A stretch of DNA of 64,000 nucleotides, from positions 1,125,915-1,189,914 of the forward strand of contig OZ244799.1 of assembly GCA_965219955.1 (NCBI GenBank). The letters run 5' to 3'. This document shows, piece by piece, positions 3,454 through 59,388 of the stretch (the stretch's first letter is position 1; the number at the start of each line of letters is the position of its first letter). Below the pieces are notes generated by a model. It saw only the letters and a list, made by a program, of their open reading frames with translations. It did not search any database and was not told the DNA's origin. This DNA comes from a bacterium. Its GTDB lineage: Bacteria > UBA8248. The translations under genes were made by a program, and so were the position numbers.

Positions 3454-3459
3454 GGATGG

Positions 3460-4020
3460 CGATGCTGCTCAGGTCGTCATTCCGGCAATCAATGCCGACC
3501 GAGGAGGGAGGGATTGCCCGGAATCCATTTTCAAGCAGAATGGCAATACGCTGGCTTTTCATCTCCTCGTCATCGGTGCGAATCAATAAAGAAAAAACAA
3601 AGGCAGAACAAATGGATTCCGGCTTTCGCCGGAATGACGGTGAGCGAGATATCGATTTGTAGGGGCGGTTCGCGAACCGCCCCTACGGGATACCCGACGC
3701 GAGGAGAAATCAACTCCCCCCTTGAGGGGGAGTCGAAGAGGCCGAGCGTTTTTTGCGAAGGCCGATTCGGTGGGGGGTGAAACGCGTTTTATCGCCACCC
3801 GAATTATCCCCCCCACCGAGTCAGCCTTCACCTGTCGGTTCGGCTTCCTCGACTCCCCCTCAAGGGGGGAGTGATTGGTTGGCGCTCTGCAAGGGAGGAG
3901 TAAGGTTTCATCCCTCCATGGTCGGCTCTATCTGTGGAATCACGAGATCAGGGCTTTTTCAACAGCCCCCTCAAGGGGGGAGTGAATATAAAACACCTCA
4001 AATCTTATTTCCCTCGAACC
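3460..4020. repeat. Intergenic mosaic repeat block including a variant MITE-like element (3476-3638)
   Basis: Interrupted left TIR 'gtcattccggcaatc...cccggaatccatttt' and intact right TIR 'aaatggattccggctttcgccggaatgac' (3610-3638). 'gtaggggcggttcgcgaaccgcccctac' (3660-3687). Three 'ctcccccctcaaggggggag' hairpins and one 'tttttcaacag' module. Confidence 0.8.
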
Positions 4021-11087: not shown

Positions 11088-11102
11088 TGTTCAGCCCCGC
11101 CG

Positions 11103-18661: not shown

Positions 18662-18769
18662 GCGTCGGGCCGGCGCGCGCTTTTGGCTGTTACCGCCCGT
18701 TCATGTATTTTGTGTAATATACATGAAATTGTACGCTGTCGCCGTTTATCCATATGAAGGAAACGAGAG

Positions 18770-24258: not shown

Positions 24259-24276
24259 ATCGAGAGGCGATACGCA

Positions 24277-25329: not shown

Positions 25330-25352
25330 ACGCCTGCTCAAAGAGGATCGCC

Positions 25353-26246
25353 TTGAATTCGGACCTGTATTTCGACCCCCTCGTCATCTCGCGACTGTCC
25401 AACCTCCAGTTGCGCGCCCGTCACGTGGTCGAGGGCCTGATGAGCGGCGTGCACAGGAGCCGCTCGCGGGGGTTCAGCGTCGATTTCGAGGAGCACAGGG
25501 CGTACAGCCCCGGCGACGAACTCCGGCATGTCGACTGGAAAGCGTACGGGAAATTCGACCGCTACCTCGTGAAGCAGTACGAGGACGAGACGAACCTCTA
25601 CGCGCATCTCGTCGTCGACGCCAGCGCCTCGATGGATTTCGGCGACGGCGCCCTGAGCAAATGGGCGTATGCGGCCACGCTCTCCTCGGCGATGGCGCAT
25701 TTGCTGCTGGGCCAGTCCGATTCGGTGGGCCTGGTGGTTTCCCGTGAGACCGAGGACACGCTGGTTCCTACCAAATCCATCAGAAAACACTTGCTGACCC
25801 TGCTGGCGGGCCTTCAGGCGGCGTCGCCGGACGGGGGGACCGGAATCGCCCGTTCGATGCTTGCCCTGGCGGAGCGCCTGAAGCGAAGGGGGCTCATCGT
25901 GGTCGTTTCCGATTTGCTCGATGACCCCGAAGCCGTGGAGAAAGCGCTCAAACTCCTGTGCCTCAAGGGCAACGACGTCATCGTGTTTCACATCCTCGAC
26001 AGCGTGGAGCTCGAGTTCCCCTTCGAGGGGCTCGCCAGGATGGACGACGTCGAGACGGACAGGAACATCACCGTGGAATGCGAGGTGGTGAAGAGGCCCT
26101 ACCTCGGGCTTCTGGAGGAATTTCTCGAGCAAACGCGGGAGCAGTGTGCGGACCTGGGGGTGGATTATCATCTCGTCTCGACGGCCGAGCCGCTGGACAG
26201 GGGCCTTATCCGTTTCCTGGCGTGGCGCAGCCGCTCGAGGGTATAG
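25353..26246 (+). CDS. DUF58 domain protein
   Basis: 'SRSRGFSVDFEEHRAYSPGDELRHVDWKAYGKFDRYLVKQYEDE' is the canonical DUF58 core. TTG start assumed. Confidence 0.85.
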   Translation: MNSDLYFDPLVISRLSNLQLRARHVVEGLMSGVHRSRSRGFSVDFEEHRAYSPGDELRHVDWKAYGKFDRYLVKQYEDETNLYAHLVVDASASMDFGDGALSKWAYAATLSSAMAHLLLGQSDSVGLVVSRETEDTLVPTKSIRKHLLTLLAGLQAASPDGGTGIARSMLALAERLKRRGLIVVVSDLLDDPEAVEKALKLLCLKGNDVIVFHILDSVELEFPFEGLARMDDVETDRNITVECEVVKRPYLGLLEEFLEQTREQCADLGVDYHLVSTAEPLDRGLIRFLAWRSRSRV

Positions 26247-26270
26247 CGGAGCGCCCGGGGAGAAGAGAAC

Positions 26271-28406
26271 TTGAGTTTTCAATTCTTGCACGCAGCGCTT
26301 CTTTGGGGGATGGGACTCGTCCTGCTTCCCGTCCTGATTCACCTGCTGCGCAGGCGCCTCGTCCGCAGATACCGCCTCCCCACCTTCGAGTTCCTGCTCA
26401 GAACGCAGCGCCGCATCACGAATCGCAGCAGGCTCAGAAACTGGATACTCCTGTTTCTCCGCGTGTGCGCCGTCGGGATCATCATCTTCCTGGCGTCGCG
26501 TCCTCTCCTCGAGACCGAGGGCGGCGTGTCGGCCGTCGGATGGTTTCCCGTCCACACGGTCGCCGTGATCGACAATTCGGCGAGCATGGCGTTCGAGACG
26601 GGAAAGGGGAGCCGCTTCGACGTGGCCAAACGCGCCGCGAGGCGGATGATCGAGGACATGTCCGATGCGGACCGCATGAGCATCGCGGCGACCGCCGGGG
26701 ATGCTGCGGCCGCCGCTCCACTCAAGGAATTGAAGCGTGAGGATGCCCTCGCCGCCCTGGAGGGGGTCCGCCAGACAGACGCCAGGGGCGCGCCCGCCCG
26801 CGTCGTTCAGCATGCGCTCGAGAACGCGTCGCCCCAGGCGGGGCGGAAAAACATCGTCGTATTCAGCGATTTCGCCAAGGGGGACTGGGAGTCGTTTCAG
26901 ATTCGCAACCTCAAGCAATGGAACCCGCATGTTCATCTGCAGTTCGTGCGCGTGGCCCCCGAGGCGGGAGTGGAGGATCTGAGCCTCCGGGATGTGAAGA
27001 TGAAGCCCTGGCCGCCCAAGGCGGGTTTTTCCTTCACCATCGGGGCGCGCGTTTTCAACCGGGGAGAGGAGAAGAAATCCAAAGTACCCGTGCAGTTGTT
27101 CGTGGGCGGGGAACTGCGGGAGACGATCGAAGTGGACGTGGAGCCGGACGGGGCGAGTCCCGTGAGTTTCCGGGTGAATGCCCCTGAAAAGGGCGTGCTC
27201 AACGGGCGCATCGAGTTGCCGAAAGACAACCTTTCGGCGACGAACCGGTTCTACTTCGCGGCGGGCATCGGGAAGCGTTTGCGCGCCCTGGTGATCGATG
27301 GGGATCCCAAGCGCGGGCTCCAGGACAGCGAAACCTTTTTCATGGTCAACGCCCTGAGTGCGGCCCCTCTGGGCGGGGAATCCCCGGTGTTGACGCACGT
27401 CGTGGCGTCTTATGAGCTGGGCAACGTGCAATGGGACGAATATGACTACGTCATCGCCTGCAACGTGGGCCGCTGGCCCGGGCGGGGGGAGCAAGGCTTG
27501 AGGAGTTTCGTCGAAAAGGGCGGCGGCCTTCTCTGGGCCACGGGCGAACTGTCGAGCGACAAGGCCGCGGGGCTCGGCTGGCTTCCGGCCACGCCGGGAG
27601 AGCCCGTAACGCTGCGCCCGTCCCAAAGCCTCAAGATCGCGCAGGGCGAGGAGTCGCACCCGGCGTTCTCTTTGCTGGGGGCGTACGGGGGGCGGTTTTT
27701 CTCCGCCTTGCGCCTGGCGAGGGTTACGCCGCTCCAGCCGGCGAGAGGTGGACGGGCTTTGCTGGAGCTTCCCGACGGCACGCCCCTCCTGGTGGTCGGC
27801 TCGGTCGGCTCGGGCCAGGTGATGGTATGGGGCTCCACGTGTGATCGGGACTGGACGGACCTTGCCGTGCGGCCCGTTTTCGTTCCGCTCATCAGAGGGA
27901 TTTCCGATTATTTGGGAGGCACCAGAAAGGGCGTTTCCTCATCCGCGGACGCAGGCGACGCATTCGAAATCAGGGCGCCCATCCGGCGCGTCGGGGAGGC
28001 GATACAGATACGCGGGCCGGTAGGGGAAGAAAGTGCGCTTCAATTCATGGAGAAGACCCCCGGCCTCGAAGACGCGCCCGCCGACGGGCTCAGGCTGGGC
28101 AAGGCGGGAAGCGCCGGCGCCGTCGCCTACTACCGCGACGCCTACCGCGCGGGTTTCTACCGCGTGCTCACGCCCGATGAGAAACATTTCGTGGCCGTGA
28201 ACGCGCCAGCATCGGAAGCGAACGTTTCTCCCGTGGAGATGAGCACGCTCAAGGAAAAACTCGAGAAACTCGACGTGCGCGATTTGCCTGCGGACGACTC
28301 GGATCCGCTGCGCTCTATCTTGAGTCTCATCGACCTGGGCGCGCTCTTGTTTCTCGCACTGGGAGGGATATTCGTCGCCGAGGCGTTCCTGGCGGACAGG
28401 ACCTGA
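26271..28406 (+). CDS. BatA-N-terminal / vWA domain membrane protein
   Basis: 'FLHAALLWGMGLVLLPVLIHLLRRR' double-TM aerotolerance-regulator N-terminus, 'VAVIDNSASMAF' MIDAS motif, and a C-terminal TM helix. Confidence 0.8.
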   Translation: MSFQFLHAALLWGMGLVLLPVLIHLLRRRLVRRYRLPTFEFLLRTQRRITNRSRLRNWILLFLRVCAVGIIIFLASRPLLETEGGVSAVGWFPVHTVAVIDNSASMAFETGKGSRFDVAKRAARRMIEDMSDADRMSIAATAGDAAAAAPLKELKREDALAALEGVRQTDARGAPARVVQHALENASPQAGRKNIVVFSDFAKGDWESFQIRNLKQWNPHVHLQFVRVAPEAGVEDLSLRDVKMKPWPPKAGFSFTIGARVFNRGEEKKSKVPVQLFVGGELRETIEVDVEPDGASPVSFRVNAPEKGVLNGRIELPKDNLSATNRFYFAAGIGKRLRALVIDGDPKRGLQDSETFFMVNALSAAPLGGESPVLTHVVASYELGNVQWDEYDYVIACNVGRWPGRGEQGLRSFVEKGGGLLWATGELSSDKAAGLGWLPATPGEPVTLRPSQSLKIAQGEESHPAFSLLGAYGGRFFSALRLARVTPLQPARGGRALLELPDGTPLLVVGSVGSGQVMVWGSTCDRDWTDLAVRPVFVPLIRGISDYLGGTRKGVSSSADAGDAFEIRAPIRRVGEAIQIRGPVGEESALQFMEKTPGLEDAPADGLRLGKAGSAGAVAYYRDAYRAGFYRVLTPDEKHFVAVNAPASEANVSPVEMSTLKEKLEKLDVRDLPADDSDPLRSILSLIDLGALLFLALGGIFVAEAFLADRT

Positions 28407-31464: not shown

Positions 31465-31872
31465 TTAGTCATTTCCGGGGTGTTCTGTGCTTTGCAAGCG
31501 CCGTCGAACTTCTTCGAGTAACGCTTCCGCGTGCCGGACGGCTGTGGCTCGGTCGAGAGGCATCGCGCTGGGATCGCCGGCGCCGTAGCGAAATTGAACG
31601 GCATACGAGGTGTATTCCACCAATCCATCGAACCGTGCGGCCTCCGCGTCGTGCTCTTTCAACATATTTATCAGCCGCGACAGATCGTGGGTAGGCGGAT
31701 ACGTCTTCCCATGTAGAGCAAGCAGGGCCTTGAGCGACTTCTCCAACGCCTGTTGCACATGAAAGCCGAATATCTCGTCGGCGAAAATGGTTGCGTCTCC
31801 CATGCCGCAAAGGGCGGAATAATCCCGTTCCGCCGCCTCCAGGAGCACGCGAGCCTGTTTAGGATCGCTCAT
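31465..31872 (-). CDS. HEPN domain protein (toxin partner of a HEPN-MNT pair)
   Basis: 135 aa. 'FHVQQALEKSLKALL' helix, 'THDLSRL', and a C-terminal Rx5H ('RATAVRH'). Overlaps the MNT gene by 14 bp. Confidence 0.8.
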   Translation of the reverse strand: MSDPKQARVLLEAAERDYSALCGMGDATIFADEIFGFHVQQALEKSLKALLALHGKTYPPTHDLSRLINMLKEHDAEAARFDGLVEYTSYAVQFRYGAGDPSAMPLDRATAVRHAEALLEEVRRRLQSTEHPGND

Positions 31873-32194
31873 AGAGCACTTCGCCTTCGCGCAGGGCGCG
31901 CGCCAGGACGTGGTTCAAGGAGTCGCGCCAGTACTCCACTTCATCGCTACTGAAGAGCAAAATATCCTTGGAAACGTCGAAACCCGCCAGCGCGCGCCAA
32001 AGCCGCGTCGTTTCGGAGCGTCTGTCCCGCCCCTCCTTAAAGGGGGCGGCTTCCACAACCACGAAATCCACGTCGGAATCCGCCCCCGCGTCGCCACGTG
32101 CGCGTGAGCCGAAGAGGATCACCTGCTCGGGATCGACCTCATCCACGATGGTCTTCACCATCCGCCGTAGAAGCGCGTCGTCTACTCGCGTCAT
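31859..32194 (-). CDS. Minimal nucleotidyltransferase (MNT) domain protein (antitoxin partner)
   Basis: 'LFGSRARGDAGADSDVDFVVV' GSx10DxD motif. 111 aa. Confidence 0.85.
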   Translation of the reverse strand: MTRVDDALLRRMVKTIVDEVDPEQVILFGSRARGDAGADSDVDFVVVEAAPFKEGRDRRSETTRLWRALAGFDVSKDILLFSSDEVEYWRDSLNHVLARALREGEVLYERS

Positions 32195-44250: not shown

Positions 44251-45660
44251 GCCCACGAGAATGCAAGCGGTTTTTGGGGAGGGTTCGGCGCAAAGCGGTT
44301 CGGCTCAGTCGTATATCCGGCCTCTTCGTTGCGGCGCTTTACTCTGGCCGCGGGCCCGTATGGAGATAGGTGGACCGGGTCCAAATCGCCCTCGTGAGCT
44401 CGGTGGCTCTGGACACGCATCTGGTTTTCCCGATCCCGTCTCGATGACCGTTTGCCCTTACCCTTCCTCCGGCCTGCTCACATTCCTCCCGGCTCTATCC
44501 GTGCGCCCGCCGCTCAGGCGAGGGGCGCCGGCTCCCTGTAGACATCCTTGTTCCGCATCAGCGCCCACGCGATGCGCGCCATCCGGTTCGCCAGCGCCAC
44601 CGCCACCACCTTCCTCGGCTTGCGCGCCAGCATCCGCGCCAGCCACGGACACGGCGGCTTCCGGCGACGCCCCGCCCAGCGTATCTCCGACATCGCGCCC
44701 GATATCAACAGACGCCTCACGTCGCGCTGGCCCATCTTCGACATGCCCCCCAGACGGGGCTTGCCCCCCGTGGAGTGCTGCCGGGGAACCAGACCCAGCC
44801 AGGCCGAGAAGTCACGGCCCCGACGGAAGTTCTCCACCGGCGGCGCGAACGCCCGGATCGCCGACGCCGTAATCGGACCAACACCCGGGATGCTCATCAG
44901 ACGCCGCGCCTCCTCGTCCGCGTATGCGCTCGCCCGGAGCCGTCCGGTCAACTCCCGGACCTTCGCATCGAGGCCGCCAATCTGGGCGAGCAGAATCCCG
45001 CCCAACTCGCGGACCTCCTCGGGCAGGCCCGATTCCGCTCCCCGAACCGCCGCCGCCAGCCGTGTGAGGCCCACGGGCCCTTGCCGCTCGACGACCCCGA
45101 ACTCCGCCAGGTGGCTGCGCAGCGCGTTGCGCGCCTGCGTGCGCTGACCCACCAGCAAATCCCGCGTGCGGTACTCCATCCCACACCCCTGCTGCGCTTC
45201 GCTCTTCACCGCCACGAAGCGCATCGTCGCCCGGGTGGCCGCCTCGCAAATGGCCTCCGCATCCGCCGCGTCGTTCTTGTGGCGCTTCACGTAGGGCTTC
45301 ACGTAGACCGGCGGCATGAGCCGAACCTCATGGCCGAGCTTGCCGACCTCGCGCCCCCAGTAGTGCGCGCTCGCGCACGCCTCCATCGCCACCACGCATC
45401 GAGGCTGCGACGACAGAAACTCCAGCACCTTCGCCCGCGTCAGCTTCTTGCGGAACGCGACCCGCCCGTCCGCCCACGCGCCGTGGAGTTGAAAACTGTG
45501 TTTCGCCAAGTCGACCCCGATGATGTAGACTCCTCCCATGGTCGTCTCCTTCCGGGCGGTGTGTGACGTCGTCTCGCCACATTCTAATCCGCCGGAAGGA
45601 GGCGTCCACCCCATCGCCCAATCGCTCGGACGAAAACACCGAAAGCGGGAGCACACACAG
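44240..45660 (-). mobile_element. IS110-family insertion sequence (boundaries approximate)
   Basis: The transposase CDS is flanked by unique, non-repeat sequence at 44250-44513 and 45540-45659. The right edge abuts a truncated palindromic repeat at 45660-45685. No terminal inverted repeats are expected for this family. Confidence 0.55.
44514..45539 (-). CDS. IS110 family transposase (DEDD recombinase)
   Basis: 'IIGVDLAKHSF', 'VVAMEACASAHYW', 'KNDAADAEAI', and the C-terminal 'MSIPGVGPITASAIRAF' motif. ATG 45539 follows AGGAGA. Confidence 0.9.
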   Translation of the reverse strand: MGGVYIIGVDLAKHSFQLHGAWADGRVAFRKKLTRAKVLEFLSSQPRCVVAMEACASAHYWGREVGKLGHEVRLMPPVYVKPYVKRHKNDAADAEAICEAATRATMRFVAVKSEAQQGCGMEYRTRDLLVGQRTQARNALRSHLAEFGVVERQGPVGLTRLAAAVRGAESGLPEEVRELGGILLAQIGGLDAKVRELTGRLRASAYADEEARRLMSIPGVGPITASAIRAFAPPVENFRRGRDFSAWLGLVPRQHSTGGKPRLGGMSKMGQRDVRRLLISGAMSEIRWAGRRRKPPCPWLARMLARKPRKVVAVALANRMARIAWALMRNKDVYREPAPLA

Positions 45661-45751
45661 TCAGACATATATGTCTAACCCCTACGCCGAACCACTCAAT
45701 TGGGGCTTTTACAACACCTCCCCCTATGCCGCCTGGGAAAATCTTTACCGG

Positions 45752-48644: not shown

Positions 48645-49019
48645 CTACTTCCCGGGTTCCTTCAAATCAATCTTCTCGATCCAGTAATACTGCGAGAGCG
48701 TCCTCAGGCCCGACGGCGTGACGGAGACGAGCTCAGCCGTGGAGCCCTTGACGCCGCGCATGCTGCCGAGGTTCTGGTAGATGCGGATGTGGAACTCCTC
48801 GGGCGGGAACTTCGCCGTGACGAGCAGGGCGAGCCTCGCGGGACCAGTCGCCAGGTGCGCCTTGAGTGCCGGCGTCAAGCGCGAGGGCGCCGTCGCGTAG
48901 CCGTATCCGTAATAGAGGGCGAACAGAAACGCCGCGGCGGCGAGGAACCGCACGGTGGGGTGCTGCGTCCAGCGGCGCTCGCTCTGGTCGCTCCCGGGAG
49001 TAGGTGTCGAGGCGTCCAT
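48645..49019 (-). CDS. Hypothetical single-pass membrane protein (last gene of the ABC operon)
   Basis: 124 aa with one TM helix ('VRFLAAAAFLFALYYGYGY'). 3 bp downstream of the permease gene. No family recognised. Confidence 0.5.
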   Translation of the reverse strand: MDASTPTPGSDQSERRWTQHPTVRFLAAAAFLFALYYGYGYATAPSRLTPALKAHLATGPARLALLVTAKFPPEEFHIRIYQNLGSMRGVKGSTAELVSVTPSGLRTLSQYYWIEKIDLKEPGK

Positions 49020-49022
49020 CTT

Positions 49023-49883
49023 CTAGTCAGGCCTCCAGACCATGCCCCACCTCTGGATGGTCCATCTCTCCAGCGGGATAAGAAGCAACCTGTCCGTGAT
49101 CATCCACATGATGGCGATGACGAGCACGCCCAGGAACACCTCTTCAATCTTGTATTCGGCGGCGGAGACGAAGATCATGAAGCCCAGGCCGCTGTCGCCG
49201 CCTATCATCTCGGCTGCGATCAGCGCGCGCCAGCCGAAGCCCATGCTCATGCGCACGCCCGTGACGATGCTGGGCAGCGCGCCGGGGATATAGACCTGGG
49301 TGATGATGGCCCATCTGTTGCCGCCCATCGTCAGGACGGAGTTTTCATACACCCGAGGTACGCCCCGCACGCCCAGGAGCGTGTTGAAGAAGATGAGCCA
49401 GAACACGGTGTTCAGCAGGATGAAGAGCGTCGTGAGCCAGCCGGTGCCGAACCACACGATGGCCAGCGGCACCCAGGCGATGCCCGATATGGCGTTCGCG
49501 AACACGCCGATGGGCTCGAGCGCATGGGCGAAGCGGCGGCTCATGCCTGCCAGCACGCCCAGGGCGATGCCCGAGGGAATGCCGATGACGAGGCTCAGTC
49601 CCACGCGGCCCAGGCTCGAGAGGATGTGGTTCGTGAACAGGCACTCGTACTGCATCGTGAGGGCGGCGCTCGCGCCCGCGCAGCCTTCCGAGAGCGTGTA
49701 AACCGCCTCCCAGATGGTTCCGATGGGCGGAATGTACACCGGCGGGAGCCATTCCATCGAGGTGTTCATCTGCCACATGACGAGCAGGACGGCGAAGGGG
49801 ATGCTTCCCAGCAATATCTTCCGCAGCCTCTGGCGGCCGAAGCGCTTCTGTAGGCCGATGGACGCCGCCTGGAGTACGCTCAT
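49023..49883 (-). CDS. ABC transporter permease (NitT/TauT family)
   Basis: BPD-type permease with 'ALIAAEMIGGDSGLGFMI'. Start at 49883 gives an ATGA overlap with the upstream permease. Confidence 0.85.
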   Translation of the reverse strand: MSVLQAASIGLQKRFGRQRLRKILLGSIPFAVLLVMWQMNTSMEWLPPVYIPPIGTIWEAVYTLSEGCAGASAALTMQYECLFTNHILSSLGRVGLSLVIGIPSGIALGVLAGMSRRFAHALEPIGVFANAISGIAWVPLAIVWFGTGWLTTLFILLNTVFWLIFFNTLLGVRGVPRVYENSVLTMGGNRWAIITQVYIPGALPSIVTGVRMSMGFGWRALIAAEMIGGDSGLGFMIFVSAAEYKIEEVFLGVLVIAIMWMITDRLLLIPLERWTIQRWGMVWRPD

Positions 49884-50704
49884 CGCTGTACGAGCCCCCA
49901 CCGCTGGATGGTGTCCGCCTCGATGGGGCGCAGGGCGAAGCGGTCGATCATGATCCAGATGACGCCGATCATCACCATGCCGAGGATGACCTGGGCGGTG
50001 AGGTCCGCGTCCTGTGAGGTGAAGATCATCCAGCCCAGGCCGCGCCTGCCCGCGAGCATCTCGCCCGCGATGACGGCCCGCCAGGCGTAGCCGATGCCCA
50101 GCCGGGCGCCTGTGGCGATGTGGGGCATGGCGCTCGGGATCAACACGTCCTTCACGATCCTGAGCCTTGAGGCTCCCAGCGTTCGCAGGGCGTTCACGAG
50201 TATCATCGGGGTGCTGCGCACGCCCGTCAGAACGTTAAAAGCTATCGGGAAAAAGCAGGTGTAGAGGATGACGACGAAGACCGTCTTCTCGCTGTTGCCC
50301 CACCAGACGACGATGATGGGAAGGATGGCGATGCCCGATATGGACTGAAAGAAGTTCATGATGGGGTAGAACATGTCCGAGACGGTGCGGTTCAGCCCCA
50401 GGGCGATGCCGAAGGGGATGCCGAGCAACAGGCCGATGGCGCTGCCGATGACGAGCCGCCACAGCGTCTGGCCGATGTAGTTGGGCAACAAACCCTTCCA
50501 GATGACGTCGTAGGAAGACAGGACGACCGAGACGGGCGAGGGCAGGTAGCGGCTCGGGTTGGGGATGTTCTGCGAGATGACGCTCCACAGGACGAGAATC
50601 CCCGCGATGAGGAGCACGAGTTCGATACCGCCGCCCCGGATGAAACTCCTCCACCTTCTTGAACGCGCTTTTCCCCTAGGAACCGCCCCGCTACTCCTCG
50701 TCAT
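49880..50704 (-). CDS. ABC transporter permease (NitT/TauT family)
   Basis: 'AVIAGEMLAGRRGLGWMIF' EAA-like loop. ATG 50704 overlaps the ATPase stop by 14 bp. Confidence 0.85.
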   Translation of the reverse strand: MTRSSGAVPRGKARSRRWRSFIRGGGIELVLLIAGILVLWSVISQNIPNPSRYLPSPVSVVLSSYDVIWKGLLPNYIGQTLWRLVIGSAIGLLLGIPFGIALGLNRTVSDMFYPIMNFFQSISGIAILPIIVVWWGNSEKTVFVVILYTCFFPIAFNVLTGVRSTPMILVNALRTLGASRLRIVKDVLIPSAMPHIATGARLGIGYAWRAVIAGEMLAGRRGLGWMIFTSQDADLTAQVILGMVMIGVIWIMIDRFALRPIEADTIQRWGLVQR

Positions 50705-51479
50705 CGAACACCTCCTCGCGCACGAGGCGGAGAATTTCATCGCGCGGGTCGGTGTAGGCCTTCTCGGAGAGCAGGTCCTTCCAGATGCGGTTTTCGCGCG
50801 GCACGTTGATCTTGACGGTGGCCTTGAGCTTCCCCGGACGGCGCGAGAAGATGAAGCACCTGTCACCGAGGAAAGCGGCCTCATCCACGTTGTGCGTGAT
50901 GAAGAGAATCGTCTTCTTCGTCGCGATGGCGATGCGGTTCAGCTCTTCCTGCAGGGTGATTCTCGTCTGGGCGTCCACGGCGGCGAAGGGCTCGTCCATC
51001 AGCATCACGACGGGGTTCGCGCAAAGCGTCCGCGCGAGGGCGCAGCGCTGCTTCATGCCGCCCGAGAGCTCGTGCGGGTAACGGTCCTCGAAACCCGAGA
51101 GGCCGACCAGGTCGACGAACTCCTGCACCCTCTGTTCCCGCTCGCTCCTGGCGACGCCCTGAATCTCCAGGCCGTGGCCGATGTTCCTCGCCACCGTGCG
51201 CCAGGGGAGGATGGCGTGTTCCTGGAACACCACGCCCCGGTCCGGCCCCGGCCCCCCCACCTCCTTGCCGTCCACCTGCACGCTGCCCTCGGTGTGGGGG
51301 AGAAGGCCCGCCAGGATGTTCAAGAGCGTGGTCTTGCCGCAGCCGCTCGGGCCGACGACGGCGGAGAACTCGCCGTCTTCCACGGAGAGGCTCACCCGAT
51401 CCAGCGCGTGCACGTCCTCGCCCGTGTATTCGTCCGGATAATGGTGCGATAGTCCCTCGACGACCAGTTTCGCAGGCAT
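50691..51479 (-). CDS. ABC transporter ATP-binding protein (NitT/TauT family)
   Basis: Walker A 'GPSGCGKTT', signature 'LSGGMKQRCALAR', Walker B 'VVMLMDEPF'. Confidence 0.92.
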   Translation of the reverse strand: MPAKLVVEGLSHHYPDEYTGEDVHALDRVSLSVEDGEFSAVVGPSGCGKTTLLNILAGLLPHTEGSVQVDGKEVGGPGPDRGVVFQEHAILPWRTVARNIGHGLEIQGVARSEREQRVQEFVDLVGLSGFEDRYPHELSGGMKQRCALARTLCANPVVMLMDEPFAAVDAQTRITLQEELNRIAIATKKTILFITHNVDEAAFLGDRCFIFSRRPGKLKATVKINVPRENRIWKDLLSEKAYTDPRDEILRLVREEVFDDEE

Positions 51480-51553
51480 GCGTATCCGTTCCTTTCCAAG
51501 CGCAATCCGCGCCCCGGCGAGACGTGCGGGGCGCGGATGTCAGGCGGCTTCGA

Positions 51554-52570
51554 CTATTTGAGGTCCTTGAACCACTCGGGGTGTTCCTTCATGGTCCGGT
51601 TGATGAACTGGAAGTCGAAGTACTTTTTGGGGTCGTAGGGACGCTTCATCTTCTTCTGGGCGATGAGCTGCTTCACCGAGAAGTTGAAGGCCTTGAGCGT
51701 GTTCTCGCCCAGGCGCGTGTCATACGTCCACCACTTGATGGTGCGCTTGATGAGGGCGGCGTCCATGCCGCGGACGTAACGCGCGCCGATTTTCGAGATC
51801 TCGTCGATGTTCTTGGGGTCGCGCACGTAGGCGGCCGCCTCGGACATGCCGTTCACGAACGCCTGGGTCGCCTTCTTGTCCTTGTAGACGCGCTCGGGCA
51901 CACCGTGCATGCCCGCGCAGAAGCACACGTAGTCGCCGCCGCGCGACACGATGGAGGAACCCTTCACCTTGTCGACCATGCGGGTGAGGTAGGGCTCCCA
52001 CGCCACCATGGCGTCCACGCCGCCCGAATCGAACAGCGAGACGAGGCTCGGCGGACGCACGTTGATGCGGCGCACGCCGCCCACGCCGATGCCGTTTCTC
52101 TCCAGCAGGGTGCGGAGGTAGAGGTCGCCGGTGGAGCCGAAGGTGGCGCCGATCTTCTTGCCCTTCAAATCCTTGATGCTCTTGATGCCCTTTCCGGGGC
52201 GCACGGCGATACCCACCATCTCGTCCGTGGTGGATTTCTTGTAGGAGCCGCCGACGTAGCCCACGACGCCGCGCACCTTGATGCCGCGCTCGAGCGCCGC
52301 CGGCAGGTTGGTGAACGCGGCGGGAGCGAAGTCGATCTGTCCGGCCTTCAAGGATTTGGTGAGCTGGGCGCCCGTGTTGCGCACGACGACTTTCCCGTCC
52401 AGCCCGTTCTTGGCGAAAAAGCCCTTGTCGACGCCGACGAAGACGATCATGCCGCCGGTGTTGCTGGCGGCGCCGAGCTTGAGCGTGGGCGCCGCCGAGG
52501 CGACCCCCGCCGCCGAGAGCGCGAAAGCAAACGCGACGGCCAGTGTGATACTGGTGAAATACCTCTTCAT
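51554..52570 (-). CDS. ABC transporter substrate-binding protein (NMT1/THI5-like, sulfonate/nitrate/taurine type)
   Basis: Signal peptide 'MKRYFTSITLAVAFAFALSAAGVASA'. 'GAQLTKSLKAGQIDFAPAAF'. ATG 52570 follows GGAGG. Confidence 0.8.
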   Translation of the reverse strand: MKRYFTSITLAVAFAFALSAAGVASAAPTLKLGAASNTGGMIVFVGVDKGFFAKNGLDGKVVVRNTGAQLTKSLKAGQIDFAPAAFTNLPAALERGIKVRGVVGYVGGSYKKSTTDEMVGIAVRPGKGIKSIKDLKGKKIGATFGSTGDLYLRTLLERNGIGVGGVRRINVRPPSLVSLFDSGGVDAMVAWEPYLTRMVDKVKGSSIVSRGGDYVCFCAGMHGVPERVYKDKKATQAFVNGMSEAAAYVRDPKNIDEISKIGARYVRGMDAALIKRTIKWWTYDTRLGENTLKAFNFSVKQLIAQKKMKRPYDPKKYFDFQFINRTMKEHPEWFKDLK

Positions 52571-52736
52571 TGCTAGCCTCCAATAATGCGAGATGAATAG
52601 AAGCGGCCACATCCGGAAGATGTCGTGGCCGTGAACGTATGATGACGAAAATTCGTATCGAATCATGGCATTGTTGAGGAAGAGCACCCGGGACGCAAGC
52701 GCCCGCGCACCCTCCGGAATCCGTGCATCCTTCGCG

Positions 52737-53573
52737 CTATTGCGCCTGCACGATGGGCGTGTCGTCGCGGTTGCCCCATTCCTTCCAGGAGCTCATGTAG
52801 TTTTTTACCCTGGGGTAGTCCAGGAGCCGCAGGGCGAAGTAACCGTGCGCCGCACGGTAGCCCGTCTGTCAGTAGGCGGTCACTTCTTTTTCGGGCGTGA
52901 CGCCGATGGCCTCGAACTGCGCGCGAAGCTCATCGGCTGGCTTCATCTCGCCCTCGGGCGTCAGGTGCTGGAGCCACTCCTGCCAGACCGCGCCGGGGAT
53001 GATGCCGCTGCGCCTGGCGCGCGTGCTGCGCCCCTCCCACTCCTCAACCGAGCGGGTGTCGAGCAGCATGTGGTTGTCGTCCTCGATGGCCGCCAGAACG
53101 TCCTCGCGCGTGGCGAGTCGGCCCGGCTCGAACGCCATCTCGAATGCGGTGGCCTTGGGCACTTCGGCGTCGCGCGTCGTCTCGTAGCCCGCCCGCTCCC
53201 AGGCGCGGTAGCCGCCGTCGAGCACGTGGACGTCCTTGTGGCCGAAAAGCTCCAGCATCCAGAAGCCGCGCACGCTCGTGTTGCCGACGAAGTCGTCGTA
53301 GAAGACGATGGTGTTCTCGAACGACACCCCGCGGTTCCCCAGCAGAAACGCCCACATGGCGAAGAAATTCCTCAAGGGCGCCTCGTCCGAATCGTCGCTG
53401 TTCACGCCGTAGACGTCGAAGTGCCGCGCGCCGGGGATGTGGCCCATCGTGTAGCGCTCGCCGGGGCGCGTGTCGATGATTCTTAAACCAGGGTCGTCCA
53501 TGCGTGTTTTAAGTTGTTCGGCCGACCAGAGCAGGCCGGGGTTCGCATACCCTTTCGGGTTGTCGCTCGTCAT
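52737..53573 (-). CDS. Two-domain rhodanese-like sulfurtransferase with in-frame TGA (candidate selenocysteine) at the active-site Cys position (codon 52869-52871)
   Basis: Track ORF 52869-53573 ends '...PEKEVTAY' at TGA. The same frame continues 'QTGYRAAHGYFALRLLDYPRVKNYMSSWKEWGNRDDTPIVQAQ' to TAG at 52737. This gives the rhodanese loop Y-[C/U]-Q-T-G-Y-R-A and a normal 278-aa length. Confidence 0.75.
52842..52858 (-). promoter_or_regulatory. Candidate bacterial SECIS hairpin (ACCGUGC-GGC-GCACGGU)
   Basis: Perfect 7-bp stem with a GGC apical loop. The stem starts 10 nt after the UGA, and the loop G residues sit at positions 21-22 counted from the U of UGA. Confidence 0.5.
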
Positions 53574-53585
53574 GGTGTTCTCCTC

Positions 53586-54332
53586 CTAGTCCGTCCAGAA
53601 GCCGCCGTTCACGTCCACCGCCTCGCCGTTGATGTGCGCGGCCTCCTCGCTCGAGAGGAACAGGACGGTGTGCCATACGTCCTCTGGCGTCGTGAGCCTG
53701 CCCATCGGGTGCGCCTTCTCGGCGTTCACGAGCATCTCGGGCGGGGACTGGAAGTGAAGGCCCGTATCGGCCGGACCCGGCTGTATGGTGTTGATCGTCA
53801 CGCCCGTTTTCGCCAATTCGCGCGCCAGGTTGAACGTCATGGCGAGCAGGCCCGCCTTGGCGGCGGAGTAGGTGAGGTTGGGGCCGATGCCCCCCATTTT
53901 CCCCGCGATGGACGCGAAACTGACGATGCGCCCCGTGCCCGAGGCCTTGAGCGCCTCGATGGTCTCCTGGATGCAGAAATAGGGCGCGAGCAGGTTCACG
54001 TTCAGCACGACGTTCCAGTCCTCTTCTTCGAGTTCCATCGGCGGGCGAATCGGCATGTAGCCGGCCACGTTGGCCAGTACGTCACAGCCGCCGAGCCACT
54101 CGAGGGCCGTTCGCATGGTCGTGCGGATGGCGTCCACGTCGGCGAGGTCGCAGGGGAGCTTGAAGAGCTGATCGGACGGGCCTTCTATCGCGTCGAAGGC
54201 CGGGCCTTCCCTGTCGGTGGCGAAAACCTTGGCGCCGGCTTCGAGGTATCCCTGCAGGATGCGGCTTCCCATCGCCCCCGCCGCGCCCGTGAGGATGACC
54301 TTCCGGTCGTGAAAATCAAAACGAATGGGCAT
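53586..54332 (-). CDS. SDR family oxidoreductase
   Basis: 'VILTGAAGAMGSR', 'YSAAKAGLLAMTFNLA', 'INTIQPGP'. 12 bp upstream of the rhodanese gene, which has an AGGAGG RBS. Confidence 0.85.
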   Translation of the reverse strand: MPIRFDFHDRKVILTGAAGAMGSRILQGYLEAGAKVFATDREGPAFDAIEGPSDQLFKLPCDLADVDAIRTTMRTALEWLGGCDVLANVAGYMPIRPPMELEEEDWNVVLNVNLLAPYFCIQETIEALKASGTGRIVSFASIAGKMGGIGPNLTYSAAKAGLLAMTFNLARELAKTGVTINTIQPGPADTGLHFQSPPEMLVNAEKAHPMGRLTTPEDVWHTVLFLSSEEAAHINGEAVDVNGGFWTD

Positions 54333-54673
54333 TGCGTCACTCCAAAATGATGTCCATGGGATGATCCGAATGTTCATATTCGGGCTTCAATACGGCGGAT
54401 GATACACCACAAACGAAAGGGGAGAAAGCGGGAGGGGGAAGCGCCTCGAAATAGGGGAGACGGGTCTCGTACGGCGATTTTAAGGGTTTTAATTTGCCTA
54501 TCGAGTTGTTATGATGGATTCATCATATGCAGGCGAAGCGCCATCGCGTTCTGTTGAATGCCGGAGGATTGCGATGCGTTCGAATCGGCATACCGATCCG
54601 ATTACCAGACAAAGGACAAGAACATAAAGACGCCCCGTGGCATGGACTCTCGCGCCGCAAACGAGTGGAGGTT

Positions 54674-56962
54674 ATGATGGCTGAACTCTCATACATCGGA
54701 AAAAGCGTGCCCCGCGTCGACGGGCCGGAAAAGGTGACGGGACGGGCCATGTTCACCCTGGACCTCCAGTTGCCCAAAATGCTCCACGGGAGGCTGCTCG
54801 GGAGTCCCCTGCCGCACGCGCGAATCAAGAACATCGATACCAGCCGCGCCGAGAGGCTCCCCGGCGTCAAGCTCGTGATGACGTCCAGGGATATCCCCGA
54901 GGGAGTGGAATGGGGCGTCGTGCCCGTTTGCTACGATCAGCATCCCCTCGCCTCGGACAAGGTGCGGCACGTGGGCGACTCGGTGGCGGCTGTTATCGCG
55001 ACTTCAGAAGACATCGCGGTTGAGGCGCTCGATCTGATCGACGTCGACTACGAGGAGCTTCCCGCCGTCTTCGACCCGAGAGAAGCGATGCAAGAGGGCG
55101 CTCCCGTCATCCACGACAGGTACCCGGACAACATCGCCTTCACCAAGCACATGGAGTTCGGCGACGTGGACCGCATGTTCGACGAGGCCCATCACGTGAG
55201 CGAGCTGGCCACCTCCTCCTCGCGCCAGATGCACGGCTCGTTGGAGGCGCACGTCTCCATCGCCGAGTGGTCGCAGAAGGGCGACGTGACGGTCTACAAT
55301 TCCTCGCAATGCCCGAGTCTTTCGAGCCAGTATTTCTCCAAACTCCTCAAGATTCCGGAGGCCCAGATTCGCGTGATCACGAACTACGTGGGCGGGGGAT
55401 TCGGCGGGAAGGCGACGAGCAAGTTCAACATCGATTTCCTCTCCATCATCGCGGCGAAAAAGCTGAACCTCCCCGTAAAATTCTACTACACGCGGGAAGA
55501 GGAGTTTCTTCTCGGGACGCACCGGACGAAGCAGTTCCACGTCTGGCGCATCGCCACCGACAAGGACGGGATGCTGCTCGCCCGAGACACCCAGATGGTG
55601 GTGGAAAACGGCGGGTATTCGGATTACAGCCCGGCGGTCGGCGGCATCACGGCGCACATGGGCGGGAGCATCTACAACTACAAGGCCTATCGCCACCACG
55701 CCGACGTCGTCTGCACGAACGTGCCGCCCGGCGGCGCGATGCGCGGAATCGGCAACGCCGGCTATGCGTTCGGCTCGGAACTCGCCATGGAGAAACACGC
55801 CGAGGAGATCGGCATGGACCCGGCGGAGTTCCGCATCAAGAATTTCGTGCGGAAGGGCGACACCACCATCATCGGGGCCAAGATCACCAGTTGCGGCGTT
55901 TCCGAATGCGTGGAAGAGGCGGTCAAGCGCGTGCCCTGGCGCCAGAAACAGCCGAGCAGCAACGGGAAAAGGCGCGGCTTCGGGCTGGCCGCTGCGGTTC
56001 ATTTCACCGGAGCGCGCGCAATGGGGCCGGAGACGGCGGGCGCGTTCATCAAAATGAACAAGGACGGCACCGTGCAGCTGCTCTCGGGCACCATCGAGAT
56101 GGGCAACGGCTCGGACACCACGCTCGCCCAGATTTGCGCCGAGGCGATAGGGATTCGCGTGGAGGACGTGCGGATCATCAACGGCGACACCGCGGTGAAT
56201 CCCTACGGCTGGGGCGTGCGCGGAAGCCGCACGACGACCATCGACGGCGAGGCGACGCGCCTGGCGTCGGTCCAGGCGAAGAACATGCTCTTCAGGGGCG
56301 CGGCGGAACTGCTCGAATGCGACCCGAACGACCTCGACGCGCGCGACGGCAGGATTTTCGTCACCAGCTCTCCCGAGCGGCAGGTGACCCACAGCGAAGC
56401 CTACATGAAACTCTACGAAAAAGAGGGCAGCGAGGCCGTCTACACGGCGTCCTCTTATGACTCGCCGAGCGAGACGCCCGACCCCGTGACGGGCTACGGG
56501 AACTGGTCCGCGGCGTATGCCTACGGCGCCAAGGTGGCGGAAGTGGAAGTGGACACCGAAACCGGCGCGTTCGAGGTGCTGCGCGTCATCAGCACGAACG
56601 ACTGCGGAACCATCGTGAATCCCGCCGGCGCGCAGGGGCAGTTGGACGGCGGCGCGGTCATGGGCGTGGGCTACGCCATGATGGAGGATTTCGAGTGCGA
56701 AGACGGACAGCCGGTGAACGCGAACTGGCTCGACTACAAGCTGCCCACCACGCAGGATTTGCCCGAACTCGAGGCCGTGCTTATCGAGACGGAAAATCCC
56801 TCGGGGCCTTTCGGCGCGAAGGGGCTGGGCGAGATGGCGCAACTGGGAACCTCGGCGGCGATAGGCAACGCGATCTATGACGCCGTGGGCGTGCGGATTA
56901 CGTCGCTGCCCATAACGCCCGAGAAGGTGCTGGCTGCCCTGAACGAGAAAAACGGCGATTAA
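54674..56962 (+). CDS. Xanthine dehydrogenase family molybdopterin-binding large subunit (aldehyde oxidase/CoxL-like)
   Basis: 'YIGKSVPRVDGPEKVTGRAMFT', 'GGGFGGK', 'GAMRGIGN', 'EMGNGSDT', 'GPFGAKGLGE'. Confidence 0.9.
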   Translation: MMAELSYIGKSVPRVDGPEKVTGRAMFTLDLQLPKMLHGRLLGSPLPHARIKNIDTSRAERLPGVKLVMTSRDIPEGVEWGVVPVCYDQHPLASDKVRHVGDSVAAVIATSEDIAVEALDLIDVDYEELPAVFDPREAMQEGAPVIHDRYPDNIAFTKHMEFGDVDRMFDEAHHVSELATSSSRQMHGSLEAHVSIAEWSQKGDVTVYNSSQCPSLSSQYFSKLLKIPEAQIRVITNYVGGGFGGKATSKFNIDFLSIIAAKKLNLPVKFYYTREEEFLLGTHRTKQFHVWRIATDKDGMLLARDTQMVVENGGYSDYSPAVGGITAHMGGSIYNYKAYRHHADVVCTNVPPGGAMRGIGNAGYAFGSELAMEKHAEEIGMDPAEFRIKNFVRKGDTTIIGAKITSCGVSECVEEAVKRVPWRQKQPSSNGKRRGFGLAAAVHFTGARAMGPETAGAFIKMNKDGTVQLLSGTIEMGNGSDTTLAQICAEAIGIRVEDVRIINGDTAVNPYGWGVRGSRTTTIDGEATRLASVQAKNMLFRGAAELLECDPNDLDARDGRIFVTSSPERQVTHSEAYMKLYEKEGSEAVYTASSYDSPSETPDPVTGYGNWSAAYAYGAKVAEVEVDTETGAFEVLRVISTNDCGTIVNPAGAQGQLDGGAVMGVGYAMMEDFECEDGQPVNANWLDYKLPTTQDLPELEAVLIETENPSGPFGAKGLGEMAQLGTSAAIGNAIYDAVGVRITSLPITPEKVLAALNEKNGD

Positions 56963-56982
56963 CGAGGAGAGGGGAGAAAAAA

Positions 56983-57849
56983 ATGGCTTTCAGGCATTTA
57001 CCCGCGAACAGCGCGGAGGAAACGCTCGCCGCCATGAAGGAGCACGGCGAAGACGGGAAAGTGTTCGCCGGCGGCGTGGCCCTCTCGATTCTCATGAAAT
57101 CGCGGGTGTACGAACCCGAGGTGCTGATAGACATCGCCGGAGCGGGGGATCTGGATTTCATCGAGGGAACCGGGAACGGCGGCCTCCGCATCGGAGCGAA
57201 GACGGTGCACCGCAAGATCGAGACTTCCCCCCTCGTGCAGGAGCGCTTCCCGCTGCTCGCGGAAATTTTTCACAACGTGGCCACGATTCGCATCCGCAAC
57301 CAGGGGACGGTGGGCGGCAATCTGTGCTTCGCGGAACCGGCCTCCGACCCGCCGGGCGCATTTCTGGCCCTCGAGGCCAGGATGAACGCCAAAAAGGCGG
57401 ACGGCTCCGAACGCGTGATTCCCGCGGCGGAGTTCTGGACGGGATATTACGAGTGCGCCCTGGATGAGGATGAACTGCTGTGTTCGATCGAAGTCGACCC
57501 GCTGCCCGATGGGTTCCGGACGGCGTGCACGCGCTTCACCACGCGCTCGAAAGAGGACAAGCCCTGCGTATCCGTCTCCACAGCGGTGCTCACCGAAGAG
57601 GACGGCAAGACGGCCAAGGAGGTGAGAATCGGCCTGGGCGGCGTGGAGGCCGTGTTCAGGCGCCTCACGGCGGTGGAAGACGGTCTTCGGGGCAAGGAAC
57701 TCAACCAGGAGAACATCGACGCCGTTCTCGCGGACGCGCTCGATGACCTGGAGCCTCTCACCGACATCCGCGCGAGCAGCGATTACAGACGTCAGGTCAC
57801 GCCCGTCCTGATCCGGCGAACCATCCTGAAGGCGCTGGGCGCGTCCTGA
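56983..57849 (+). CDS. Xanthine dehydrogenase family FAD-binding medium subunit (CoxM-like)
   Basis: 'VFAGGVALSILMK', 'IRNQGTVGGNLC', and C-terminal 'DIRASSDYRRQV'. Confidence 0.88.
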   Translation: MAFRHLPANSAEETLAAMKEHGEDGKVFAGGVALSILMKSRVYEPEVLIDIAGAGDLDFIEGTGNGGLRIGAKTVHRKIETSPLVQERFPLLAEIFHNVATIRIRNQGTVGGNLCFAEPASDPPGAFLALEARMNAKKADGSERVIPAAEFWTGYYECALDEDELLCSIEVDPLPDGFRTACTRFTTRSKEDKPCVSVSTAVLTEEDGKTAKEVRIGLGGVEAVFRRLTAVEDGLRGKELNQENIDAVLADALDDLEPLTDIRASSDYRRQVTPVLIRRTILKALGAS

Positions 57850-57874
57850 ACCGACGGGTTCGCTCTTTTTTCTT
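57848..57874 (+). terminator. Weak intrinsic terminator candidate
   Basis: gaacc-gacg-ggttc followed by 'gctcTTTTTTcTT', overlapping the stop codon. Confidence 0.4.
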
Positions 57875-58074
57875 GAATTTTCCGGGACTGATGAGGGATA
57901 CTGCGTTTCACTTGAGATATGCTTGATTGCGTCCGCGGGTAAGGATGGGGGAGGCATCCTCCCGGTAATTCACTTCACAAGGAAGCCAGAAAACGGAAGA
58001 GGTGGTTGTTCCTGCAATCGCCTCGTCATGCCCGAATGTTGTTAGTCGAACTTCTCACGGGGGGGGACAGAGAT

Positions 58075-59388
58075 ATGAAGAGAAATCGGACCAATCGTTT
58101 CGGTTTGGCGCTTCTTGGATGTGTAACAGCCCTGGCGTTGTTTGTCGCACCGGCCGCCGGGGGTGAAATCGACGATCTCAAGGCGCAGATCAAGGCGCTC
58201 ATGAATCGGCTCGAAGCTCTCGAATCCCGGGAGAAGAAGATGAAGGCCGATATGATGGCCGCCCAGGATGCCGCCCGGAAAAAGGCTGTGGCTACCGGCG
58301 ACTTCCCGGGCTCCTGGAAGATGCCGGGATCGAACACTTCCGTCTCCTTCAGCGGCTACGTCAAGCTCGACGCTATTTATGATTTAGACCAGGACCTGGG
58401 CGATTCCTTTTTCGGCTATGACTGGGCAGGCGGCGCGAGCGGCATACTCCTGGAAGGCGATGACAGTGGTCAACGCAAAGCCTCCCTGCACGCCAGGCAG
58501 ACGCGCCTGCGCTTCGACAGCCTGACGCCGACAAAAACGGGTGACCTCAAGACCCGGATCGAAACCGATTTCTACGGTGGCGGCAACGCCCTGCGCCTGC
58601 GTCACGCCTACGCCTCTCTGGGCGGGGTGCTGGCGGGACAGACCTGGACGACGTTGATGGATGCGAACACCTACGCCGACACGGTGGACTTCGAAGGTCC
58701 TGTGGGCGTGGTGGCAACGCGCCGGCCTCAAGTCCGCTACAGCCAGGCGGTGGGGAAGAATCTCACGATGCAGGTGGCGCTCGAGGATCCAAGCGCCCCG
58801 ACTATCCTGATGGGCGGCGGAAAAACGTCCTCCCAGGAGCGGATTCCGAACCTTGTGGCGGCTCTGCGAATGAAAACGAGTTGGGGCGCCATCAACGTGT
58901 CCGGGTTGCTGGGGCAGGTTCTCTACGAGGAAGGCGCGACGGAAGAAAGTGTCACAATGAGCGCTCTCCACCTCGGCGCGAACATCGGCCTGGGCAAGGC
59001 CACCCGCCTTTGGGGCACGTTCAACGTCGGCCAGGGCGGATTGGACCAGTCCATGCTGGGAGCGCCCGCCGCCGCTGTCTTGAGCGCAAACAACGAACTG
59101 GAAGCGCTGGATTCCATGGGCGGTTTCGTCGGCCTCACGCATAACTGGACCGGCGCTGTGAGTTCGGGCCTGTATTACGGCTGGGTGGAGAACGATTTTG
59201 ACGATGCCGCCAAGGCGGCGTATCCGGCCCTCAGCCAGTCGCTCCAGACGGTGCACGCCACCATCTGGTGGTCACCCGCGCCCAAGACGAGGATTGGTGC
59301 GGAGATCATTCAGGGATGGCGCGAGACGAACGGCGGCGAGGAGGGCGACGCGACGCGCCTGCAGTTGGGTTTCGTGTATAGCTTCTAG
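58075..59388 (+). CDS. DcaP-like outer-membrane porin (N-terminal coiled coil plus beta-barrel)
   Basis: Signal peptide, 'IDDLKAQIKALMNRLEALESREKKM' coiled coil, alternating beta-strand pattern, and C-terminal '...LQLGFVYSF'. Confidence 0.7.
   Translation: MKRNRTNRFGLALLGCVTALALFVAPAAGGEIDDLKAQIKALMNRLEALESREKKMKADMMAAQDAARKKAVATGDFPGSWKMPGSNTSVSFSGYVKLDAIYDLDQDLGDSFFGYDWAGGASGILLEGDDSGQRKASLHARQTRLRFDSLTPTKTGDLKTRIETDFYGGGNALRLRHAYASLGGVLAGQTWTTLMDANTYADTVDFEGPVGVVATRRPQVRYSQAVGKNLTMQVALEDPSAPTILMGGGKTSSQERIPNLVAALRMKTSWGAINVSGLLGQVLYEEGATEESVTMSALHLGANIGLGKATRLWGTFNVGQGGLDQSMLGAPAAAVLSANNELEALDSMGGFVGLTHNWTGAVSSGLYYGWVENDFDDAAKAAYPALSQSLQTVHATIWWSPAPKTRIGAEIIQGWRETNGGEEGDATRLQLGFVYSF

Follow-up and report, generated by a model that had tools for sequence, protein, structure and literature searches.

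Does a rhodanese gene that breaks off at the position of its own catalytic residue encode a truncated protein, a decaying relic, or a complete enzyme with selenocysteine (Sec) at its active site? The locus that raises this question lies in a stretch of 64,000 nucleotides from a bacterium of the GTDB lineage UBA8248 (GenBank assembly GCA_965219955.1, contig OZ244799.1, positions 1,125,915 to 1,189,914 of the forward strand), which we call the window and from whose first letter all positions are counted. On its minus strand, an open reading frame (ORF) starting with ATG at 53573 ends after 234 codons and the peptide ...PEKEVTAY at a TGA (52871-52869), beyond which the frame stays open for another 43 codons, QTGYRAAHGYFALRLLDYPRVKNYMSSWKEWGNRDDTPIVQAQ, up to a TAG at 52739-52737. 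An earlier, sequence-only reading had suggested that this TGA is a Sec codon served by a hairpin directly downstream, and its coordinates for ORF, TGA, extension, TAG and hairpin all proved correct. Based on the comparison with homologous loci described below, we consider it very probable that the locus holds a genuine Sec-encoding gene for a rhodanese, with Sec as residue 235. Its parts are as follows:

52737-53573, minus strand: complete predicted selenoprotein gene of 278 sense codons (234, the UGA as Sec, and 43) plus the TAG, encoding a two-domain rhodanese-type sulfurtransferase

53580-53586, minus strand: Shine-Dalgarno-like GGAGGAG, 6 nt 5' of the ATG at 53573-53571 and overlapping the stop codon of the upstream short-chain dehydrogenase/reductase (SDR) gene; putative in function

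53193-53525, minus strand: N-terminal rhodanese domain, residues 17-127 (best stretch in Pfam), non-catalytic, with YDD at the place of the active-site Cys

52758-53096, minus strand: C-terminal catalytic rhodanese domain, about residues 160-272, with approximate boundaries from PDB alignments over query residues 8-276

52869-52871, minus strand: in-frame UGA, codon 235, followed by C; predicted Sec codon, aligned with the Cys of 1uar and 1e0c and with the TGC or TGT of 30 Cys loci

52854-52871, minus strand: predicted active-site loop U-Q-T-G-Y-R of the six-residue C-X4-R type with the motif UxxG, from translation and alignments

52740-52868, minus strand: 43-codon extension, the remainder of the catalytic domain as judged from codon-position entropies and from nonsynonymous substitution rates (dN) below synonymous ones (dS)

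52737-52739, minus strand: true stop codon TAG, as read from the sequence

With Cys placed at the stop, the read-through product matches two PF00581 rhodanese domains in Pfam (E 4.8e-34, 117 bits), and in a search of solved structures its residues 8-276 align with the Thermus thermophilus rhodanese (1uar, E 4e-41) and with RhdA of Azotobacter vinelandii (1e0c, E 2e-40), while E. coli SseA (1urh) and bovine rhodanese (1rhd) likewise give end-to-end alignments. The stop codon shares its column with the catalytic Cys of 1uar (active-site motif YCRIAERS) and of 1e0c (HCQTHHRS), and about 90 Cys homologs carry Cys in the same column of an alignment of the listed homologs, that is, of those among the best 120 protein-database matches near the query. 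At the TGA site, full-length homologs (276-280 aa, 55-71% identity) read Y/F-C-[Q/N/H]-T-G-Y-R-S-A-H-A-Y. These alignments bear out the proposal that the TGA occupies the catalytic Cys column of a C-x-x-G-x-R loop, and, as also claimed, the extension brings the product to the normal length, here ~279 aa.

The extension can be aligned position by position with the C-terminus of the Cys homologs and of the PDB rhodaneses, and the C-terminal rhodanese domain is complete only with read-through of the UGA. If translation ended at residue 234, the catalytic domain would lose its active-site loop and its final third or so. Read through, the protein would have its catalytic nucleophile at the head of the six-residue loop of the C-terminal domain, with Sec replacing Cys. 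The YDD found instead of Cys in the N-terminal domain is the usual state of an inactive rhodanese domain. The predicted enzyme thus shares with 1uar and 1e0c its fold, its length, the inactive N-terminal domain and the position of the six-residue loop, and has the C/U-Q-T-x-x-R pattern of RhdA, but differs from both by a UGA instead of TGC and by the loop QTGYR, not QTHHR or RIAER.

An open stretch of 43 codons is unremarkable in DNA of 63% G+C, where we estimate its chance occurrence at ~30%, and because neither the open frame nor the folding energy of the hairpin is significant alone, the case rests on comparative evidence. This was drawn from the DNA of 31 TGA loci of species-representative genomes (26 at species level) and metagenome contigs, covering short-read as well as closed long-read assemblies, at 72-97% amino-acid identity. 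In all 31 of them the TGA is followed by C, and the reading frame runs on for 42-50 codons before it meets a real stop. The extension (codons 245-277), compared over 26 distinct sequences, shows entropies of 0.23, 0.24 and 0.81 at codon positions 1, 2 and 3, compared with 0.29, 0.20 and 0.73 in the part upstream of the TGA, and dN is lower than dS downstream of the TGA in 8/8 pairs, as it is upstream. Codon-position entropies and dN/dS relations of this kind indicate translation beyond the TGA, with purifying selection acting on the part that follows it.

A neighbour-joining tree of 112 homologs groups the 26 TGA forms as one clade, with P0009 and P0013, both of the Cys form, as its sisters, and this monophyly points to a single Cys-to-Sec switch in this rhodanese clade. 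As had been anticipated, there are Cys orthologs whose alignment spans the TGA: the one nearest to the Sec clade (P0009, at locus L068) has the same SDR gene upstream.

Two observations on individual homologs may be added. The long-read metagenome-assembled genome (MAG) that contributes locus L024 holds a second Sec-rhodanese copy (locus L035, CBDCRP010000003.1, positions 3001-3832) with a 1-nt insertion after nucleotide 197 and an otherwise intact TGA, hairpin and extension; the insertion may be a sequencing error, or the copy may be a strain duplicate or a pseudogene of recent origin. Four Cys homologs of 434 aa (P0053, P0057, P0062 and P0103) have an extra N-terminal region of ~160 residues rich in His/Asp motifs that looks cupin-like by eye.

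If the UGA is recoded, a bacterial Sec insertion sequence (SECIS) should follow it in the mRNA, and the region directly downstream contains two relevant features:

52842-52858, minus strand: predicted bacterial SECIS core ACCGUGC-GGC-GCACGGU, 17 nt, with a 7-bp stem and the loop GGC, -9.7 kcal/mol when folded alone

52842-52877, minus strand: codons 233-244, a 12-codon block that is nearly free of synonymous change in the Sec clade, by third-position entropy

The hairpin begins 10 nt after the UGA, with 17 nt between the UGA and its first loop G, and is part of the minimum-free-energy (MFE) fold. The published bacterial SECIS model describes a loop of 3-9 nt with a G in its first two positions, an upper stem of 4-16 bp, a spacing of 16-37 nt between UGA and loop and an MFE of at most -7.5 kcal/mol; with a 3-nt loop (GGC) starting with GG, 7 bp, 17 nt and -9.7 kcal/mol, the hairpin falls within every one of these bounds, in line with the earlier suggestion that its geometry suits SECIS recognition. 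Codons 233-244, which span it, have a third-position entropy of 0.10 compared with a gene mean of 0.71 and form the lowest 12-codon window of the gene, a minimum that none of 100,000 permutations reached (p < 1e-5), and synonymous-site conservation is limited to this block. The stem requires two invariant codons ending in U (CGU and GGU), yet the G+C content at third codon positions of the gene is 89%.

The association of this hairpin with the TGA is strict. It accompanies the TGA in 31/31 loci, perfect in 27 and with 6/7 pairs in the other 4, and Cys codons in 0/30, where only 2-5 of the 7 pairs could form. A natural control is provided by 29 Cys-encoding homologs from Vicinamibacterales, in which TGC or TGT stands at the site and the peptide G-Y-R-A-A-H-G-Y is encoded as well; the third positions of this GYRAAHGY stretch vary there, with a mean entropy of ~0.62. 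Nor was the hairpin found in the Cys ortholog with the same SDR neighbour (P0009/L068). As a separate observation, a terminator-like pattern on the opposite strand (52862-52879, plus strand) overlaps the UGA region; terminator-like patterns in the scanned region occur at the rate expected from shuffled sequence, so this one is probably due to chance.

The sequence-only reading had also pointed to a second TGA at a redox Cys position in the window, and such a gene is indeed present:

1674-2321, plus strand, TGA at 1977-1979: second TGA-interrupted gene of selenoprotein type, AhpD/CMD-like, with the motif C-E-I-U (CxxU), from alignment and profile matches

It reads ...LINDCEI-TGA-TNHNVKLGQAAG..., where Cys homologs have N-x-C-E-Y-C-x-x-H-N, and in public annotation it appears as two separate small ORFs, of 82 and 109 aa. 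Translated with Cys in place of the stop, it matches TIGR01926 (peroxidase-related/AhpD-like) at 1e-18 and 67.7 bits, below the cut-off of 81.8 bits, and more weakly two NCBIfam models named "(seleno)protein". Its hairpin AGCUU-GGUC-AAGCU is weak and has its loop 21 nt after the UGA. Genome OZ244906.1, which carries a Sec-rhodanese (L025), also has an ortholog of the AhpD-like gene (L069) in which the TGA is kept and the hairpin, again with the loop GGUC 21 nt after the UGA, shows a compensatory change from A-U to G-C. Together with the second gene and its ortholog, the literature lends good, if indirect, support to Sec decoding in the organism: sponge-associated MAGs labelled "Nitrospinota" or "Nitrospinae" in the GTDB phylum UBA8248 are reported to hold 48-54 selenoprotein genes, and SelA, SelB and SelD are present in the sponge-derived bin107 of the UBA8248 lineage, with none in Nitrospina gracilis.

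Several points weigh against a Sec-encoding gene. None of selA, selB, selC/tRNA-Sec and selD was found within the 64-kb window: Pfam and NCBIfam scans of its ~45 gene models gave no selA, selB, selD or selU, ARAGORN found no tRNA gene in the window, and Rfam gave no hits there. The window's tie to the selenoprotein-rich UBA8248 MAGs is drawn from record names and habitat, not from a phylogeny, and is best taken as presumptive. A scan of the window at Rfam gathering thresholds found no family that matches the hairpin, and its folding energy stands out only modestly from shuffles (z of -1.3 for 76 nt and -2.4 for the 17-mer) in a G+C-rich context. The lower stem of the MFE fold (GGGC/GCCC) is not conserved, and we rejected it as part of the element because relatives differ in its 3' arm, in part by changes that would break a pair.

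No compensatory change was seen in the stem among the TGA loci either, where it either stays the same or loses strength through a single change; the variants are limited to CGU to CGC in L026 and L027 (C.A) and GGU to GGC in L024 and L028 (terminal A.C), and each loses one pair. In each stem pair, a wobble base faces position 1 or 2 of a conserved codon, or two such positions face each other, and covariation is hardly possible because every pair thus involves a non-synonymous base of a conserved codon. Finally, selenium incorporation and activity in the Sec COG2897 family, to which the gene appears to belong (see below), are themselves predictions.

The alternative that fares best, and one we regard as very unlikely, is that UGA 235 is read through without SelB or selenium, either by a near-cognate tRNA (for Trp or Cys) or by Cys-tRNA(Sec) at times of selenium scarcity, so that the enzyme contains Cys or Trp. 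The lack of Sec machinery in the window would fit such a scenario, and so would the base after the UGA, as UGA-C is a leaky stop context. A simple leaky stop needs no hairpin, however, whereas one of SECIS geometry goes with every TGA and with no TGC or TGT; the second gene of the window repeats the pattern of Cys/TGA exchange and hairpin, and in a lineage whose MAGs bear similar names, SelA, SelB and SelD occur alongside dozens of selenoproteins. UGA is also not generally reassigned, given that TGA is the stop of 15/45 gene models in the window.

Still more improbable, in our view, is that the annotated protein of 234 residues is the real product, made without a catalytic residue, and that the hairpin serves mRNA stability or attenuation ahead of the genes of an ATP-binding cassette (ABC) transporter downstream. 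All public gene calls do end at 234 aa, and no terminator-like site was found between the gene and these transporter genes, but the 43 codons after the TGA have a protein-coding substitution pattern in the rhodanese frame, align with the remaining catalytic domain of solved structures and have no start codon of their own near the 5' end, and a cut at residue 234 sacrifices the active-site loop together with roughly a third of the domain. Least credible is a pseudogene born from a nonsense mutation at the Cys codon or an artefact of sequencing or assembly at the TGA, both of which the sequence-only reading had named as possible refutations: a single TGC-to-TGA change would suffice and one relative's MAG has the second copy with the 1-nt insertion (L035), but both are contradicted by the recurrence of the same TGA at 31 loci in independent short- and long-read assemblies at 72-97% identity, with an intact frame, dN below dS downstream and a monophyletic clade.

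How does the predicted Sec-rhodanese relate to known families? A Sec-containing COG2897 rhodanese-related sulfurtransferase was described in 2005 from Sargasso Sea data (3 sequences and a predicted SECIS) and found again in Olavius symbionts in 2007 (3 sequences) and in the GOS data in 2008 (1 sequence), and a review of 2026 lists the family as "Sulfurtransferase COG2897" or rhodanese form 4, with the motif UxxG and one Sec. The gene studied here has in common with form 4 the two-domain SseA/COG2897-type architecture, Sec for the catalytic Cys, the U-x-x-G motif (here U-Q-T-G), a single Sec and a bacterial-SECIS-like hairpin directly after the UGA. A feature that sets it apart from form 4 was not found in a comparison made by description, in which the exemplars AACY01016424 and MCY3690685.1 were not aligned, and it presumably falls into the same subclade as these exemplars. 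Because COG2897 architecture and UxxG motif are shared, we file it as a member of an already known kind. The difference is one of extent: the earlier surveys yielded 1-3 sequences each, and the SECIS is invariant in the clade found here, which comprises 26 or more genomes at species level. One clade member, MCY3824267.1, has an accession numerically near that of the exemplar MCY3690685.1, and a shared submission batch would be a guess.

Other selenoproteins with Sec in or beside a rhodanese active-site loop are the single-domain COG0607 forms 1-3 (UxxS, UxxG and CxU) and the rhodanese/DsbD fusion TsoB, which as single-domain or fusion architectures are unlike this tandem-domain gene. Its recoding element resembles that of E. 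coli fdhF in being a coding-region hairpin just 3' of the UGA, a 17-nt stem-loop whose loop starts with G, at 10 nt from the UGA compared with 11 nt for the minimal fdhF element. It differs from the latter by the absence of a bulged U, by a loop (GGC) that does not contain GU and by a lower stem that is not conserved, and its link to SelB is a prediction.

Among NCBIfam models, the best match of the read-through product is SseA (NF008557), with residues 17-277 covering model positions 8-280 of 281 at 143.6 bits. We rejected the assignment as a 3-mercaptopyruvate sulfurtransferase (SseA) equivalog because this score is below the cut-off of 250 bits and the loop is not of the CG[ST]GVTA type, which is that of 3-mercaptopyruvate sulfurtransferases; the loop UQTGYR is nearer to the RhdA type. 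NF041203 (35.9 bits, cut-off 115) and NF045694 (13.6 bits, cut-off 805), models for the other rhodanese-domain selenoproteins, were discarded as far below threshold. In public databases, the 25 closest protein clusters (72-97% identity) share a length of exactly 234 aa, with gene calls that end at the TGA, and are named "sulfurtransferase" or "rhodanese-like domain-containing protein" in Nitrospinota/Tectomicrobia MAGs (e.g., MYA98022.1, MDE0330720.1, MCY3824267.1 and MBI2177116.1). The full-length Sec form was not found annotated among the listed homologs (clusters P0001-P0040 and their members).

The Sec-rhodanese gene stands between an SDR gene and the genes of an importer:

53586-54377, minus strand: SDR gene (Pfam), upstream, kept beside Sec and Cys orthologs

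49023-52687, minus strand: NitT/TauT-type ABC importer (Pfam, NCBIfam), downstream

51554-52687, minus strand: SsuA-family-like binding protein of the importer, with a probable start near 52570

50691-51479, minus strand: ABC ATPase (Pfam/NCBIfam)

~49880-50701 and 49023-49901, minus strand: ABC permeases (Pfam/NCBIfam)

A gap of 12 nt separates the SDR gene from the rhodanese gene and a promoter-like site lies upstream of the SDR gene at 54504-54477; the two genes are apparently co-transcribed. Every relative examined has the pair, the one with the Cys ortholog among them, and several have the importer as well, with the same importer arrangement also at L002 and L007-L009. All NCBIfam scores of the importer proteins are below the family cut-offs. 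Assignment to the Sec-assisted organometallic (SAO) transporter was rejected, as SaoA reached 239 of 360 bits and SaoP 123 of 295, which amounts to generic NitT/TauT similarity only. At the end of the importer operon, a 124-aa ORF without a Pfam or NCBIfam match (48645-49019, minus strand) has a 122-aa counterpart in the same place at L002 and L007-L009. Divergent from the SDR-rhodanese operon, the plus strand at 54527-59388 encodes the large subunit of a molybdoenzyme of the xanthine dehydrogenase family (best NCBIfam matches 4-hydroxybenzoyl-CoA reductase alpha and XdhA, both below cut-off), a subunit binding flavin adenine dinucleotide and a DcaP-like porin, and this cluster is syntenic in several relatives.

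Farther away in the window, the minus strand at 8352-12752 holds a formate-dehydrogenase-like NAD-linked pair: a NuoF-like subunit and a molybdopterin oxidoreductase of 911 aa, in which 2Fe-2S and 4Fe-4S domains are present and whose ORF has no interruption and thus no Sec codon. The plus strand at 15452-28406 carries a cluster of DUF4159, GATase1-like, DUF4175 (1255 aa), TPR/peptidase-MA, MoxR AAA+ ATPase and BatA/VWA genes, which resembles an aerotolerance operon of the Bat/MoxR type. A HEPN/nucleotidyltransferase pair at 31465-32194 (minus strand) is toxin-antitoxin-like, and an IS110-family transposase gene at 44514-45668 (minus strand), between genes of a TRAP transporter and a luciferase-like monooxygenase, is absent from that place at L001 and L002.

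Assuming that residue 235 is Sec, the UGA in its weak-termination context UGA-C would be recoded during translation when the 17-nt hairpin 10 nt downstream, acting as a bacterial SECIS, recruits SelB-GTP-Sec-tRNA(Sec) to the approaching ribosome; Sec would be inserted, and the last 43 codons would complete the catalytic domain. SelB dependence, selenium incorporation, and enzymatic activity and substrate are all presumed in this scheme. The enzyme would presumably act as a Cys rhodanese does, its selenolate taking up sulfane sulfur as an Se-S intermediate and then handing this sulfur on to an acceptor; selenium, with its lower pKa and greater nucleophilicity, would aid both steps. Rhodanese-like sulfane-sulfur transfer via such an Se-S intermediate is the likely chemistry, and the SDR and SsuA/TauA-like importer neighbours are a hint at organosulfur metabolism. 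A bolder possibility, to which we give little credence, starts from the observation that the Sec-rhodanese is fixed beside an SDR gene and an importer in a selenoprotein-rich and apparently sponge-associated lineage: it might be a dedicated chalcogen-trafficking enzyme, e.g., one whose Se-S or Se-Se intermediate processes imported organosulfur or organoselenium compounds or feeds SelD. We know of no Cys rhodanese in such a role, and if the enzyme did have it, the invariant 36 nt of the recoding block would amount to a SECIS frozen to an unusual degree by its overlap with active-site codons.

A Sec-encoding rhodanese at this locus does not reveal a new kind of system, and its possible usefulness lies in the size of the clade and in the uniformity of its truncated annotation. 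At least 25 public clusters with hundreds of sequences are cut at residue 234 and thereby stripped of the catalytic residue, and since there is no NCBIfam selenoprotein model for this form, the truncation error will recur. The clade also offers an example of a SECIS that overlaps active-site codons and is frozen at the nucleotide level. The locus moreover provides a clean natural pair of Sec and Cys orthologs beside the same neighbour gene, which would be suited to studying the contribution of selenium to persulfide-transfer chemistry.

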